Positions 11-5,421 of a stretch of 5,421 nt of DNA are shown here, in pieces. The notes below the pieces were generated by a model. It was not told the origin of the DNA. It made no database searches and was given only the letters and a program-made list of their open reading frames with translations. Each line of letters begins with the position of its first letter. The stretch's first letter is position 1. Both the position numbers and the translations under genes were made by a program. The DNA lies in the IMG/VR virus record IMGVR_UViG_2663763171_000006. The stretch is one strand, 5' to 3'. The stretch is from a virus. Taxonomy: Duplodnaviria > Heunggongvirae > Uroviricota > Caudoviricetes.

Positions 11-226
11 ATGTATCAGATGGAAAAAATATCAACAGGCATTGCCTACGGCACCTCCGCCGGCAGTGCCGGCTACTGGTTTTTGCAGTGGTTGGATCAG
101 GTCAGTCCATCACAGTGGGCTGCGATTGGTGTGCTGGGAAGTCTGCTTCTGGGGCTTCTGACTTATCTGACAAATCTGTATTTCAAAATAAGAGAAGACA
201 AGCGTAAGGCTGCGAGAGGTGAATAA
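11..226 (+). CDS. S: Phage pinholin (class II holin, phage 21 S21-like) with holin/antiholin dual start
   Basis: 71-aa ORF with two predicted TM segments ([22 protein letters not shown] and [23 protein letters not shown]) and a charged C-terminal tail ([13 protein letters not shown]). Near-identical, from memory, to the phage 21 S21 pinholin. Two in-frame Met codons at 11 and 20 (MYQMEK...) give the classical 71/68 antiholin/holin pair. The stop overlaps the next start (TAATG at 224-228). Confidence 0.85.
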
Positions 227-723
227 TGTCGCCATCATTACGCAAGGCTGTTGCAGCTGCTATTGGTGGTGGGGCTGTTGCTATAGCATCTGTGTTAATC
301 ACTGGCCCAGGTGGTAACGATGGTCTGGAAGGTGTCAGCTACATACCATACAAAGATATCATTGGTGTATGGACTGTATGTCACGGACACACCGGAAAAG
401 ACATCATGCTCGGTAAAACGTATACCGAAGCAGAATGCAAAGCCCTCCTGAATAAAGACCTTGCCACTGTCGCCAGACAAATTAACCCGTACATCAAAGT
501 CGATATACCGGAAACAACGCGCGGCGCTCTTTACTCGTTCGTTTACAACGTGGGCGCTGGCAATTTCAGAACATCGACGCTTCTTCGCAAAATAAACCAG
601 GGCGATATCAAAGGCGCATGTGACCAGCTACGTCGCTGGACATATGCTGGCGGTAAGCAATGGAAAGGGCTGATGACCCGTCGTGAGATTGAGCGTGAAG
701 TCTGTTTGTGGGGGCAGCAATGA
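226..723 (+). CDS. R: SAR endolysin (T4-lysozyme-like muramidase, GH24; phage 21 R21-like)
   Basis: 165-aa ORF. N-terminal Gly/Ala-rich weakly hydrophobic signal-anchor-release segment ([23 protein letters not shown]) is followed by the lysozyme catalytic triad positions E35, D44, T50 ([18 protein letters not shown]). SD-like AGAGGTGA sits upstream, and the start overlaps the holin stop. Position immediately after the pinholin matches the pinholin/SAR-endolysin pairing. Confidence 0.85.
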
Positions 724-1184
724 GCAGAGTCACCGCGATTATCTCCGCTCTGGTTATCTGCATCATCGTCTGCCTGTCATGGGCTGTTAATCATTACCGT
801 GATAACGCCATTACCTACAAAGAGCAGCGCGACAAAAACGCAAGAGAACTGAAGCTGGCGAACGCAACCATTACTGACATGCAGCAGAGACAGCGTGATG
901 TTAATGCACTCGATGCTAAATACACGAAGGAGTTAGCTGATGCGAAAGCTGAAAATGAAACTCTGCGCGCTGATGTTGCCGCTGGTCGTCGTCGGTTGCA
1001 CATCAAAGCAGTCTGTCAGTCAGTGCGTGAAGCCACCACCGCCTCCGGCGTGGATAATGCAACCAGCCCCCGACTGGCAGACACCGCTGAACGGGATTAT
1101 TTCACCCTCAGAGAGCGGCTGATGACGATGCAGATGCAACTGGAAGGGGCACAGGAGTATATCCGCACTCAGTGCATTAAGTAG
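720..1184 (+). CDS. Rz: Rz i-spanin (inner-membrane spanin subunit), lambda Rz-like
   Basis: N-terminal TM helix ([20 protein letters not shown]) followed by a coiled-coil-like periplasmic domain; translation closely matches lambda Rz as I recall it. I place the start at the ATG at 720 (MSRVTAII...), which overlaps the endolysin TGA (ATGA at 720-723), rather than at the GTG at 708 used by the ORF track. Confidence 0.85.
940..1122 (+). CDS. Rz1: Rz1 o-spanin (outer-membrane lipoprotein) embedded in the +1 frame of Rz
   Basis: 60-aa ORF wholly inside Rz in another frame. It has a signal peptide with lipobox (LPLVVVGC, Cys20), a proline-rich mature region ([13 protein letters not shown]) and an AAGGAG SD 7 nt upstream of the ATG. 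It closely matches lambda Rz1 from memory. The true start may be Met1 (940) or Met6 (955). Confidence 0.8.
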
Positions 1185-1226: not shown

Positions 1227-1577
1227 ATGCCATCACTAATCCCACGTGCCTGCCGTAAGCGTGGATGTGCAGGTACAACCACAGACAGTTCGGGTTACTG
1301 CGATAAACATCGCGGTGAAGGCTGGGTGCAGCACCAGCGCGGACTGAGCCGCCACCAGCGTGGCTATGGCTCAAAATGGACGGTGATTCGTGCCCGTATT
1401 CTGAAGCGCGATAAAGGTCTGTGTCAGTTGTGTCTGCGTGTCGGTGTGGTGAGCGAGGCGAAAACCGTCGACCACATCATCCCGAAAGCGCATGGCGGAA
1501 CAGACGCAGACAGCAACCTGCAGAGTCTGTGCTGGCCCTGCCATAAAGCGAAAACAGCGCGCGAACGAATCCGGTGA
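1227..1577 (+). CDS. HNH endonuclease (terminase-associated, HK97 gp74-like role)
   Basis: 116-aa ORF with Cys pairs (CRKRGC, CQLC, CWPCH) and an HNH core (TVDHIIPKAHGGTDADSNLQSLCWPCH). GAGGT SD lies 4 nt upstream of the ATG. It sits immediately upstream of the terminase small subunit, as in HK97-type packaging modules. Confidence 0.8.
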   Translation: MPSLIPRACRKRGCAGTTTDSSGYCDKHRGEGWVQHQRGLSRHQRGYGSKWTVIRARILKRDKGLCQLCLRVGVVSEAKTVDHIIPKAHGGTDADSNLQSLCWPCHKAKTARERIR

Positions 1578-1599
1578 TAATTATTCTCACTTGTAGGGA

Positions 1600-1659
1600 G
1601 GGGCGGGGCAAATCCCTGTGACCTGACGTCTTCCGGACTGCCCGCCCCATCGTTTTTTT
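1600..1659 (+). terminator. GC-rich imperfect inverted repeat plus T7 run: intrinsic-terminator-like element, alternatively part of the cos region
   Basis: GGGGCGGGGCA (1600-1610) pairs with TGCCCGCCCC (1639-1648) as a roughly 10-bp G/C stem with one bulged G, enclosing a 28-nt loop, followed by TTTTTTT at 1653-1659. It lies in the 121-bp gap between the HNH and small terminase genes. The loop is long for a canonical terminator, so the function is uncertain. Confidence 0.4.
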
Positions 1660-1698
1660 ATACCCGCGAAAAATGAAATTTAACCAGGAGTGCCGCAT

Positions 1699-2193
1699 AT
1701 GGCTGGAACGGCGGGGCGTTCCGGGCGTCGCCCCAAGCCAACGGCGCGCAAGGCGCTGGCCGGAAACCCCGGCAAGCGAGCCCTGAACAAAGATGAACCT
1801 GTTTTTACGCCCATCAAAGGTGTTGAGCCACCAGAGTGGTTCGCTGAAGAAGATCTCCCTCTCGCCACGATCATGTGGCAACTGACAACCAAAGAACTCT
1901 GCGGTCAGGGCCTGCTGTGCGTGACTGACCTGGCGGTACTTGAGCGGTGGTGCGTGGCCTATGAGTTCTGGCGACGTGCCGTGAAAAATATTGCCATACA
2001 GGGCAACACCATCACCGGTGCAATGGGCGGCAGGGTCAAAAATCCGGAGCTGACCGCCAAAAAAGAACAGGAGTCCGAGATGAGCAGCACGGGGGCAATG
2101 CTCGGACTCGACCCCAGCAGCCGCCAGCGTCTGATTGGCCTGGCGGGGCAGAAGAAAGCCACTAACCCGTTTCTGAAAATTATCGAATCATGA
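1699..2193 (+). CDS. Terminase small subunit (P27 family-like)
   Basis: About 165 aa with a basic N-terminus ([22 protein letters not shown]) and conserved position between HNH and large terminase. AGGAG SD at 1686-1690 sits 8 nt upstream of the ATG at 1699; the GTG at 1690 used by the ORF track lies inside the SD and is unlikely to be the start. The stop overlaps the large terminase start (ATGA at 2190-2193). Confidence 0.7.
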
Positions 2194-3923
2194 GCCGGAA
2201 ATCTTACCCCAACGTAAATGCTGCAAATCAGTATGCCCGGGATGTCGTGCGCGGAAAGATTGTTGCCTGCCAGTTTGTGATTCAGGCCTGCCAGCGCCAT
2301 CTTGATGACCTGATGGCGGAAAAAAGTAAGTCGTTTCGTTACCGCTTCGACAAGGACCTGGCTGAACGGGCCGCGAAATTTATTCAGCTGTTGCCGCACA
2401 CCAAGGGGGAGTGGGCATTCAAACGGATGCCCATCACGCTGGAGCCGTGGCAGCTATTTGTGATCTGCTGTGCGTTTGGCTGGGTCAATAAAGGCACCCG
2501 GTTGCGCCGCTTCCGGGAGGTGTACACCGAAATCCCCCGTAAGAACGGCAAATCAGCAATCTCTGCCGGTGTTGCCCTGTATTGTTTTGCCTGTGATAAC
2601 GAGTTTGGCGCGGAAGTGTATTCCGGTGCCACGACAGAGAAACAGGCGTGGGAAGTCTTTCGCCCGGCGCGACTGATGTGTAAACGCACACCCATGCTGA
2701 CGGAAGCGTTCGGGATTGAGGTTAACGCCTCAAACATGAACCGTCCGGAGGATGGCGCGCGGTTTGAACCGCTGATCGGCAACCCAGGTGATGGTTCATC
2801 ACCCCACTGTGCCGTGGTTGATGAATATCACGAGCATGCCACCGATGCGCTTTATACCACAATGCTTACCGGGATGGGGGCGCGACGTCAGCCACTGATG
2901 TGGGCCATCACCACCGCCGGGTACAACATTGAGGGGCCGTGCTACGACAAGCGGCGGGAAGTCATCGAGATGCTCAACGGCTCGGTGCCTAACGATGAAC
3001 TGTTCGGGATCATCTATACCGTTGATGAAGGTGACGACTGGACCGGCCCGCAGGTGCTGGAAAAAGCCAATCCAAATATTGGCGTGTCGGTTTATCGCGA
3101 ATTTTTGTTAAGTCAGCAGCAGCGTGCGAAAAATAACGCCCGTCTGGCAAACGTCTTTAAAACAAAACACCTCAATATCTGGGTGTCGGCGCGTTCGGCG
3201 TATTTCAACTTGGTGAGCTGGCAGAGCTGCGAGGATAAATCACTGACCCTTGAGCAGTTCGAGGGGCAGCCGTGCATTCTGGCCTTTGACCTGGCGCGTA
3301 AGCTGGATATGAACAGCATGGCGCGACTTTATACCCGCGAGATTGACGGTAAAACGCATTACTACAGTGTGGCCCCGCGTTTCTGGGTACCGTATGACAC
3401 GGTGTACAGCGTCGAGAAAAATGAAGATCGACGGACAGCCGAACGCTTTCAGAAATGGGTGGAAATGGGCGTTCTGACCGTTACCGATGGTGCGGAGGTG
3501 GATTATCGCTACATCCTCGAGGAGGCCAAAGCGGCGAACAAAATCAGCCCGGTCAGTGAGTCACCCATCGACCCCTTCGGGGCGACCGGGTTGTCACATG
3601 ACCTTGCTGATGAAGACCTGAATCCCGTCACTATCGTCCAGAACTTCACCAATATGTCCGATCCGATGAAAGAGCTGGAAGCAGCGATTGAATCGGGACG
3701 TTTTCATCATGACGGCAATCCCATCATGACCTGGTGTATCGGCAACGTGGTCGGCAAAAACATGCCGGGTAACGATGATGTGGTGAAACCCGTCAAAGAG
3801 CAGGCGGAAAACAAAATCGATGGTGCAGTTGCGCTGATTATGGCGGTTGGCAGAGCCATGCTGTACGAGAAAGAAGACACGCTGTCTGACCACATTGAGT
3901 CCTACGGGATCCGCTCGCTTTAA
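2190..3923 (+). CDS. Terminase large subunit (Terminase_1 / HK97-type TerL: ATPase plus nuclease)
   Basis: 577-aa ORF with a Walker A-like motif ([12 protein letters not shown]), acidic Walker B-like segments (e.g. CAVVDEYHE) and a C-terminal nuclease-like region containing acidic residues. Size and synteny (TerS, TerL, portal) are typical. Confidence 0.85.
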
Positions 3924-3934
3924 CTGAGGTAATT

Positions 3935-4117
3935 ATGATCATGCTGATTCTCGCGCCTCTGGTGGGCGTGCTGGGTGCGCTTTTGCTGGCGTATGGTGCC
4001 TGGCTGATTTATCCCCCGGCGGGTTTTGTTGTTGCCGGGGCGCTGTGCCTGTTCTGGTCGTGGCTGGTGGCGCGATATCTCGACCGTACACGGCAGTCTG
4101 TCGGCGGAGGTAAATAG
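3935..4117 (+). CDS. Hypothetical small membrane protein (60 aa, two predicted TM helices)
   Basis: GAGGT SD lies 5 nt upstream of the ATG. Two hydrophobic helices ([22 protein letters not shown] and [19 protein letters not shown]) are separated by a PPAG turn, with a basic C-terminal tail. Host-like codon usage (CTG, GCG, GTG rich). The 3' end carries the SD (GGAGG 4106-4110) and overlapping start (TAGTG) of the portal reading frame. Confidence 0.5.
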
Positions 4118-5273
4118 TGTTCTTTTCGGGATTATTTCAACGAAAAAGCGATGTGCCGGTGACCACGCCAGCAGAACTGCTGATGCTATCGGGCTGTCAT
4201 ACGACACCTATACCGGAAAGCGGATCAGTAGCCAGCGGGCCATGCGCCTGACGGCGGTCTATTCTTGCGTCAGGGTGCTGGCAGAGTCTGTTGGTATGCT
4301 GCCCTGCAGTCTCTACAAAATCAGCGGTACCCTGAAAACACGGGCGGTGGATGAACGACTGCATAAGTTGGTTTCGGCAAAACCTAATGGCTACATGACA
4401 CCGCAGGAATTCTGGGAGCTGGTTATTGTCTGCCTGTGTCTACGGGGGAATTTTTACGCCTACAAGGTAAAGGCACTGGGAGAAGTGGTGGAGCTTCTTC
4501 CGATAGATCCGGGCTGTGTGGAACCGAAGCTGAACAGCCAGTGGCAGCCGGTTTATCAGGTGACGTTTCCGGATGGTTCCGTGGATGTGTTGACCCAGAA
4601 TGAAATCTGGCATGTGCGCACCCTGACGCTGGATGGACTTGTCGGGCTGAATCCCATTGCGTATGCGCGTGAGGCCATTTCACTGGCAGCGGCAACCGAG
4701 GAGCACGGTGCCAGGTTGTTTAGTAATGGTGCGGTGACATCCGGTGTGTTGCGTACGGAACAAAAGCTCACGCCGGATGCTTACGAGCGTCTGAAGAAAG
4801 ATTTTGAGGAGTGTCACACGGGGCTTGGCAATGCTCACCGCCCGATGATTCTGGAAATGGGGCTGGACTGGAAGTCGATGGCGCTGAACGCCGAGGACAG
4901 TCAGTTCCTGGAAACCCGCAAGTTTCAGCTGGAAGAAATCTGTCGTCTGTTCCGGGTGCCGTTGCACATGGTGCAGAACACCGATCGCGCCACCTTCAAC
5001 AATATCGAAGAGCTGGGGCTGGGATTTATCAACTATTCACTGGTGCCGTATCTGACCCGCATCGAACAGCGGATCAACACCGGACTGGTACGAAAAAGTA
5101 AGCAGGGCGTTTATTACGCCAAATTTAACGCCGGGGCGTTACTGCGCGGGGATATGAAGTCCCGTTTTGAAGCCTACGCCACCGGGATCAACTGGGGAAT
5201 TTACTCTTCCAATGACTGCCGCGACCTGGAAGATATGAATCCGCGTCCCGGTGGTGTAATGCCGATCAGTTAA
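4117..5273 (+). pseudogene. HK97-family phage portal protein, apparently disrupted (N-terminus in a different frame; 3' end abutting or interrupted by an IS element)
   Basis: A strong start (GGAGG, 6-nt spacer, GTG at 4117) opens a frame encoding a portal-like N-terminus (FFSGLFQRKSDVPVTTPAELLMLSG) that stops at 4249-4251. The conserved portal core (TGKRISSQRAMRLTAVYSCVRVLAESVGMLP ... LLRGDMKSRFEAYATG ... LEDMNPRPGG) is in the -1 frame (the ORF track's 4026..5273 frame). That frame has no ATG or GTG between 4035 and 4242 and a Cys/Arg/Trp-rich out-of-frame-looking N-terminus. The reading frame ends inside the inferred IS terminus. Confidence 0.6.
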
Positions 5274-5305
5274 GGATCAGTTGACCGATCCAGTGGCTGT
5301 GTAAG

Positions 5306-5340
5306 AATCCGGAAACGCTCACTTGTTTCCGGATTTTTTT
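5306..5340 (+). terminator. Perfect 11-bp hairpin plus T-run immediately upstream of the transposase start (intrinsic terminator / translation-occluding structure)
   Basis: AATCCGGAAAC (5306-5316) pairs perfectly with GTTTCCGGATT (5325-5335) around the 8-nt loop GCTCACTT, followed by a 7-T run at 5334-5340 (the first two Ts are in the stem). The ATG at 5341 follows at once. Confidence 0.5.
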
Positions 5341-5421
5341 ATGCACATTGGACAGGCTCTTGATCTGGTATCCCGTTACGATTCTCTGCGTAACCCACTG
5401 ACTTCTCTGGGGGATTACCTC
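5341..5421 (+). CDS. IS4-family (DDE) transposase, N-terminal 27 codons (partial, 3' truncated by window end)
   Basis: ATG at 5341 follows the hairpin/T-run directly with no SD. The translation MHIGQALDLVSRYDSLRNPLTSLGDYL is recalled as the start of the IS4 transposase (InsG). Only 81 nt are visible. Confidence 0.5.
   Translation, partial: MHIGQALDLVSRYDSLRNPLTSLGDYL

Follow-up and report, generated by a model that had tools for sequence, protein, structure and literature searches.

What is the structured, G/C-rich element between the HNH endonuclease gene and the small terminase gene of this prophage? We analysed a stretch of 5,421 nucleotides (the window), which its open reading frames and Pfam matches show to be the late region of a lambdoid prophage, with the gene order lysis cassette, HNH, gap, TerS, TerL and portal (Table 1). 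The HNH stop codon TGA occupies 1575–1577 and the terS ATG begins at 1699, so that 1578–1698 is the exact intergenic gap; AGGAG lies at 1687–1691. A sequence-only reading of this gap had described an inverted repeat around a GACGTC palindrome, followed by a run of seven T. It had offered two explanations, which might both hold: a component of a cos site, with the twofold symmetry marking a symmetric nicking site, or an intrinsic terminator.

Direct reading found the arms, GACGTC and T7 all in place within the gap. The left arm GGGGCGGGGCA spans 1600–1610 and the right arm TGCCCGCCCC spans 1639–1648. Their perfectly complementary core is 8 bp long (GGGGCGGG at 1600–1607 and CCCGCCCC at 1641–1648) and extends to 10 pairs with G1608 bulged. 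The 28 nt between the arms (1611–1638) contain GACGTC at 1625–1630, and the T7 run lies at 1653–1659. Taken alone, the inverted repeat exceeds chance only weakly. Dinucleotide shuffling of the gap produced perfect inverted repeats of at least 8 bp in 347 of 5000 cases (7%), and 13 of the 265 segments of 121 nt in this sequence contain one. Relative to shuffles, the RNA fold of the gap gave z = -1.21 and that of the 62 nt up to the T-run z = -1.56, and an Rfam scan of 1400–1900 at E ≤ 1 returned no match. The region owes its significance to the comparison with relatives and not to the repeat.

Table 1. Features of the window. Coordinates are window positions; empty cells, no entry.
Feature	Coordinates	Strand	Remark
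Phage-21-type pinholin	11–226		
Lysozyme	226–723		
Rz	720–1184		
Rz1-like ORF embedded in Rz	940–1122		
HNH endonuclease gene, gp74-like packaging accessory nuclease	1227–1577	+	Pfam HNH, E = 1.6e-16
Conserved upstream cos block AGGGAGGGGCGGGGCAAATC (G-rich run and CAAATC)	1595–1614	+	Includes left arm 1600–1610
24-nt spacer of fixed length and variable sequence	1615–1638	+	Ends in conserved GAC 1636–1638
Cohesive-end sequence TGCCCGCCCC (cosN equivalent; right arm of the repeat)	1639–1648	+	Identity to SfI end
Conserved block TTTTTTT-ATA-CCCGCG-AAAAATGAAATTTAACC	1653–1685	+	Includes T7 1653–1659; most conserved part of the gap
Small terminase, P27 family (Terminase_4)	1699–2193	+	
Large terminase (ATPase and nuclease), HK97-like	2190–3923	+	Pfam TerL_ATPase, TerL_nuclease
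60-aa hydrophobic membrane ORF between terL and portal	3935–4117		
HK97-family portal gene	4117–5273		Interrupted

Cohesive ends of related phages

The genome ends and cos annotations of phage records were placed in the gap by megablast. For phage SfI, run-off sequencing of both ends of virion DNA had revealed a 10-nt gap, 5′-TGCCCGCCCC-3′, relative to the prophage (PMC3636060). Window positions 1639–1648 are identical to this 10-nt cohesive end. The last bases of the SfI record are likewise TGCCCGCCCC and its first base is the equivalent of 1649; this record was linearised by its authors, and its experimental part is the run-off data rather than the record ends. In the phiP27 record, a 10-nt misc_feature named “cos-site” (CGCCCGCCCC) aligns to window 1639–1648. 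The record of Edwardsiella phage EPP-1, the assembly of which was corrected with PhageTerm (PMC11043334), ends with ...TGCCCGCCTC and starts with CCCCAATTTTTATGACCGCG..., which places its break at the equivalent of 1648|1649. The HK97 record ends with ...GGGGGGGGATCAAATC followed by 34 nt. In all three independent linear records (HK97, SfI and EPP-1) the last base is located exactly 34 nt past a conserved AAATC, a position equivalent to C1648 in the window.

The sequence-only reading had proposed a comparison with the termini of HK97 and related cos phages, and the record ends of HK97, SfI and EPP-1 indeed coincide at 1648|1649. As the SfI, phiP27, EPP-1 and HK97 ends and annotation agree, the gap holds a cos site, and the proposal of a cos-site component is borne out at 1639–1648, the mapped SfI end and the aligned phiP27 cos-site. 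We conclude, with a probability of about 0.92, that 1595–1685 is a cos site and that the prophage, lambdoid and defective, belongs to the SfV/SfI/phiP27 group, which packages its DNA with an HK97-type, HNH-assisted terminase. The element itself is already known as the SfI/SfV/phiP27 cos. This amounts to an annotation-level confirmation, in which the cos of a known phage group is found in a defective prophage, and it matters little for the window.

The window is identical to SfV over 1616–1701. In the records of SfV and SfIV, the first base corresponds to window position 1632, which is 17 nt left of the end mapped in SfI, and the SfV cos was termed “postulated” by the SfI authors (PMC3636060). 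The one-base SfV difference mentioned in the same paper (PMC3636060) is not visible in the records.

From these placements we infer nicks at 1648|1649 on the top strand and at 1638|1639 on the bottom strand and an overhang of 10 nt with 3′ polarity, the polarity being assigned because HK97 has it and because the SfI run-off reads from both ends miss 10 nt. In the proposed mechanism, TerS, TerL and the HNH protein would make the two staggered nicks on concatemeric DNA, one after C1648 in the top strand and the other opposite 1638|1639 in the bottom strand. The products would be 10-nt 3′-protruding ends of sequence 5′-TGCCCGCCCC-3′, as transferred from SfI by identity, and packaging would proceed rightwards into terS. 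The site consists of three conserved parts at fixed spacing: the 1595–1614 block, GAC with the overhang at 1639–1648, and the 1653–1685 block.

This arrangement resembles known systems to different degrees. As in the Shigella phages SfI, SfV, SfII and SfIV and the Stx2e phage phiP27, the cos lies between HNH and a P27-family terS, and with SfI it shares the 10-nt cohesive end TGCCCGCCCC; unlike in these phages, the element that carries it is a defective prophage, and the portal is a different one, 27% identical to that of SfV. HK97 forms 10-nt 3′ overhangs (PMC9410871, PMC11331095), and its cos is cleaved efficiently only with the help of the HNH protein gp74 (PMC9410871, PMC11331095, PMC13595911). 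The window has the same overhang length, with a 3′ polarity that is shown for HK97 and inferred here, and likewise carries HNH upstream, terS downstream and a homologous TerL. Its HNH protein is 34% identical to HK97 gp74 over 70 aa and its TerL matches HK97 TerL (6Z6D) with E = 5.4e-26 (phmmer). In both, a C-rich overhang (CGCCGCCAAA in HK97) is preceded by GAC, and ACCCG and an A/T tract lie just inside the left end.

The two sites also differ. ACCCG occupies +14..+18 in the window but +18..+22 in HK97, the T-run precedes it in the window and follows it in HK97, and about 320 nt separate HNH from cos in HK97, which lacks an inverted repeat at cos, unlike the window. No sequence similarity was detectable between the window TerS and HK97 gp1.

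The ends of phage lambda are 12-nt 5′ overhangs; its cos has gpNu1 R-sites together with an IHF site, and its cleavage does not require an HNH protein. With the lambda cos (cosQ-cosN-cosB) the window shares only the logic: an element upstream, then the staggered nicks, then a small-terminase side inside the first-packaged end. The overhang of 10 nt (probably 3′) and a TerS of the Terminase_4 rather than the gpNu1 family set it apart from the lambda type.

Layout of the site across relatives

A first set of relatives comprised 80 IMG/VR loci with an HNH identity of 80% or more. All of them have this gene and the block GGGGAGGGGCGGGTCAAATCYCTG in common, and beyond the block they fell into three types. 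Type A, which includes the window and SfV, has the overhang TGCCCGCCCC, with TerS 98–100% and TerL 99–100% identical to those of the window. Type B (phiP27) has the overhang CGCCCGCC(CC/TC), with TerS at 50% and TerL at 78% identity, and type C has CGCCGCCTGA or CGCCCGCCAA, with TerS at 27% and TerL at 42%. Across the 80 loci, the overhang and the right-hand block switch with the TerS/TerL type while the HNH gene and the G block stay constant, so that the same HNH gene (80–100% identity) adjoins three distinct terminase types. The sequence to the right of the G block co-varies with the terminase; HNH and the G block form a separate module, with a mosaic joint inside cos. The HNH gene and the upstream block travel as one module, which joins at least three terminase/cosB modules at the nick site. 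In loci L006–L085, the joint falls within the equivalent of window 1595–1648.

A second set, with one genome per species, was scanned with a TerS alignment. It yielded loci from Shigella, Edwardsiella, Kluyvera, Enterobacter, Serratia, Citrobacter, Photorhabdus and Xenorhabdus, and further ones from Morganella, Providencia, Yersinia, an Aeromonadaceae MAG, Cupriavidus and distant MAGs. These share a common architecture: a G-rich block and (C)AAATC, a 24-nt variable spacer ending in (G/T)AC, a 10-nt overhang YGCCNCC..., 15 nt with a T5–7 run, and the core CCGCGAAAAATGAAATTTAA. The layout is fixed in 44 dereplicated relatives as G-rich+CAAATC, 24-nt spacer, 10-nt overhang and T-run-ATACCCGCG-A-run. 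The distance from AAATC to CCGCG was 49 nt in 42 of 57 loci, and many of the other values (47–51) look like anchoring slips, for example where the regular expression matched AAATCT one base late. The spacer sequence is wholly different between cos types and genera and only its length is kept; the tripartite layout and the 49-nt spacing persist across Enterobacterales and beyond despite these unrelated spacers.

Information content, computed over the 44 dereplicated sites, followed the same parts. Its mean was 0.12 bits in the early gap, 1.19 bits in the G block with AAATC, 0.64 bits in the spacer, 1.50 bits in xAC, 1.05 bits in the overhang, 0.59 bits at +1..+4, 1.44 bits in the T-run and 1.56 bits in the core (+16..+37). 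The resulting sequence rule for HNH/P27-type cos phages, which reads AAATC, 24 nt, 10-nt overhang, 15 nt, CCGCGAAA, could serve to define the genome ends when prophages and metagenomes are assembled.

By eye, the pattern G-run+AAA(T/A)C...GACCGC...(T-run)...CCGCGAA is also seen upstream of P27-family terS in distant MAGs and genomes (L146, L147, L149, L153, L154, L157, L163 and L164), among them Pseudomonas, Chitinimonas, Undibacterium and Polaromonas as well as two MAGs that are non-proteobacterial. These recurrences, as sequence patterns, suggest an ancient cos architecture. Many relatives show a local GAC-N10-GTC symmetry at the nicks, where the window has GAC-N10-ATC.

The block on the terminase side (1653–1685) is nearly invariant where TerS is 72–100% identical, its core ACCCGCGAAA is still present where TerS identity falls to about 50%, and the block changes with the terminase type. 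In Xenorhabdus and Photorhabdus it keeps its distance to the nick and not to the terS ATG; the extra 50–70 nt between core and ATG in these genera tie the core to the nick rather than to the start of translation. The minimal TerS site of HK97 covers +15..+29 (CTAACCCGATTTTTT), where TerS Arg128 reads the G:C pair at +21 and an A-tract is essential through DNA shape (PMC11331095). Counted in the same way from the left end, the window has T7 at +5..+11, ACCCGCG at +14..+20 and A5 at +21..+25, with ATTTTT and AAAAAT as inverted arms flanking the GC core. Since the window shares the ingredients of the HK97 site inside its left end, we assign 1653–1685 as a probable small-terminase binding site, similar to cosB. 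In the proposed mechanism this block, by the parallel with HK97, most likely binds the small terminase. The T7 run belongs to this block. Inspected by eye for an IHF-like site, the surroundings of the T-run give a poor match in the window.

The upstream block (1595–1614) has GGGGGGGGATCAAATC as its counterpart in HK97, and in HK97, SfI and EPP-1 it ends 34 nt before the top-strand end. Compared with SfV, the window carries two substitutions here, G1608 and C1615 in place of T and T. The block is located exactly 24 and 34 bp from the two nicks and has been conserved between HK97 and the P27-family phages of many genera; it also appears in some distant MAGs. It could tentatively be seen as a third functional cos subsite, acting either as a termination signal like cosQ or as the place where HNH or TerL docks, although we consider this somewhat less probable than not. 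If it is one, the strand cuts would be positioned from both sides by different proteins. In the HK97 packaging literature examined, we came across no account of this conserved G-rich+CAAATC block. Some novelty lies only in the family-wide architecture with fixed spacing, and notably in this block.

Reading the inverted repeat and the T-run

The twofold symmetry of the repeat could mean that it is a recognition element and that a symmetric enzyme nicks about its centre, around GACGTC. The repeat and the palindrome do exist, and in the window, SfV, phiP27, Klebsiella phi6.3 and EPP-1 the complementarity of the arms was above random (≤1% in a within-lineage permutation with RNA parameters). However, both nicks are placed at the edges of the right arm, some 14–24 nt from the repeat centre near 1624; since they flank one arm only, a symmetric nuclease does not have the repeat as its symmetric target. 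GACGTC is found only in the E. coli/Shigella type A, and unrelated sequence takes its place in types B and C, Klebsiella phi6.3, EPP-1 and HK97. Nor do the arms of one site fit each other better than those of different sites. Over 29 diverse sites, cognate arm pairs reached -18.06 kcal/mol against -17.81 kcal/mol for non-cognate pairs with RNA parameters, 1467 of 5000 re-pairings being as good, and -10.60 against -10.71 kcal/mol for re-paired arms with DNA parameters. HK97, the experimentally validated system, has no repeat (-12.8 kcal/mol). The suggestion that the symmetry marks a nicking site is thus not upheld, and we regard it as extremely improbable.

A selected hairpin was also considered as a candidate and rejected, as the stricter test of cognate against non-cognate pairs removed the signal of the within-lineage permutation. 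The inverted repeat is best explained as a by-product of a G-rich block and a C-rich overhang that lie on the same strand and appear to be conserved separately. A G/C-rich inverted repeat at cos therefore does not mark the cut.

The hexamer GGGGCG is clustered around cos: four of the nine copies in the window fall within 135 bp (1600–1734), with alternating orientation at 1600(+), 1643(-), 1713(+) and 1729(-). The two copies inside terS encode an Arg/Gly-rich N-terminal arm. Since the first of these is not conserved in EPP-1, the cluster is probably an effect of coding or composition.

The second explanation, a terminator, concerns the same stem together with the T-run. The hairpin 1597–1651 and U7 (1653–1659) could form an additional Rho-independent terminator at the end of the lysis/HNH transcript, which would stop RNA polymerase that is unmodified by the Q antiterminator. 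Like such a terminator, the gap contains a G+C-rich stem and then U7. The predicted stability of the stem is -24.3 to -26.8 kcal/mol, with the hairpin 1596–1652 folding at -26.8 kcal/mol. U7 begins 4 nt past the perfect stem, and only 1 nt past a stem extended through an A.A mismatch (G1597-C1651 and G1598-U1650), which leaves G1652 alone before U7. A stem ending at most 3 nt from the T-run was predicted in about 60% of diverse relatives, and some Xenorhabdus prophages have compact canonical forms, such as GCCCCAAGG-N8-CCTTGGGGC-T7, with z = -2.8 to -4.1.

On the other hand, the hairpin of the window differs from a Rho-independent terminator in its length of 55 nt, its large interior and a pairing without compensatory change. 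A terminator scanner called nine sites, the gap hairpin not being among them; it makes no call here because the “loop” measures 28–33 nt, and the gap repeat falls outside the loop range of 3–8 nt that defines a compact hairpin. The gap folds no more stably than its shuffles (the z scores given above), most of the z scores were unremarkable, and the Rfam scan gave no match for the hairpin region. No co-evolution of the two arms was seen over 29 lineages, and the RNAalifold covariation term was only -0.09 in 13 sequences of the Xenorhabdus clade. The T-run is equally conserved where no stem abuts it (L098, L102, L107, L128–130, L135–138 and Klebsiella phi6.3). HK97 and type C have a T-run without an abutting stem as well, at a different offset from the nick, and experiments on HK97 have shown its T-run to be essential to the TerS site (PMC11331095). 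Moreover, a terminator here would fall inside the late operon, between the lysis and head genes. We therefore consider an additional terminator function unlikely; a stem followed by a T-run need not be a terminator.

Some observations were made on the Xenorhabdus hairpins themselves. In L114–L127 and L131, compact hairpins closely surround the predicted cohesive end and directly adjoin the T-run. They resemble canonical terminators, as in L123 with GCCCCAAGG-GACTGCCA-CCTTGGGGC-TTTTTTT, but covariation in the clade is weak. Changes in the Xenorhabdus hairpins that appeared to be compensatory were not upheld by RNAalifold.

State and surroundings of the prophage

The portal gene is damaged in two places. 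Compared with an intact E. coli homologue it has a 1-nt deletion near 4178, which splits its N-terminus (in the frame of 4117) from its body (in the frame of 4026). Near its 3′ end, at about 5251–5257, it is cut by IS4: homology to intact portal genes stops at 5254–5256, and window 5250–5421 (172 bases) is 100% identical to IS4. The matching IS4 ends carry the annotation “IS4-like element IS4 family transposase” in E. coli genomes. The frameshift and the insertion make the prophage defective. As it cannot make its own virions, its cos site may never be used in this host.

The deletion and the insertion would also favour the view that the gap is a decayed relic, that is, a cos-derived sequence now unused because the prophage is defective. 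Against decay, 1616–1701 is identical to the viable SfV cos, the two left-block differences G1608 and C1615 are also present in other relatives, and the HNH, TerS and TerL reading frames are intact. We consider the relic view possible but slightly less probable than its opposite, and it concerns the use of the element in this host, not its identity as a cos site. With cos, HNH, TerS and TerL looking intact, a related or co-resident helper phage of the SfV type could probably still cut the site.

Across the window, the best complete E. coli genome is about 92% identical, and no genome contig scanned contained an exact match to the portal/IS4 junction; the element probably comes from Shigella or E. 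coli. The IMG/VR locus L007 is identical to the window over 170 nt past the HNH stop, and its HNH, TerS and first 295 TerL residues are 100% identical to those of the window. The closest complete E. coli relative, VG888-46E9 (L087), has at its positions 1494–2020 an iss (bor-like) moron and a partial Rz1 pseudogene in the interval between Rz and HNH; the corresponding window interval, 1184–1227, is without this insert of about 800 bp. The ORF at 3935–4117 has no Pfam match, and its equivalent in L087 is annotated as “protein YmfR”.

Two further loci show departures of their own. In EPP-1, TerS (L088, 48–653) contains an internal tandem duplication of about 37 residues and is 201 aa long instead of 164. 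In Shigella flexneri SFBU0723 (CP182557.1; L092 and L093), two copies of terS/cos share one orientation and are separated by about 49 kb across the record origin.
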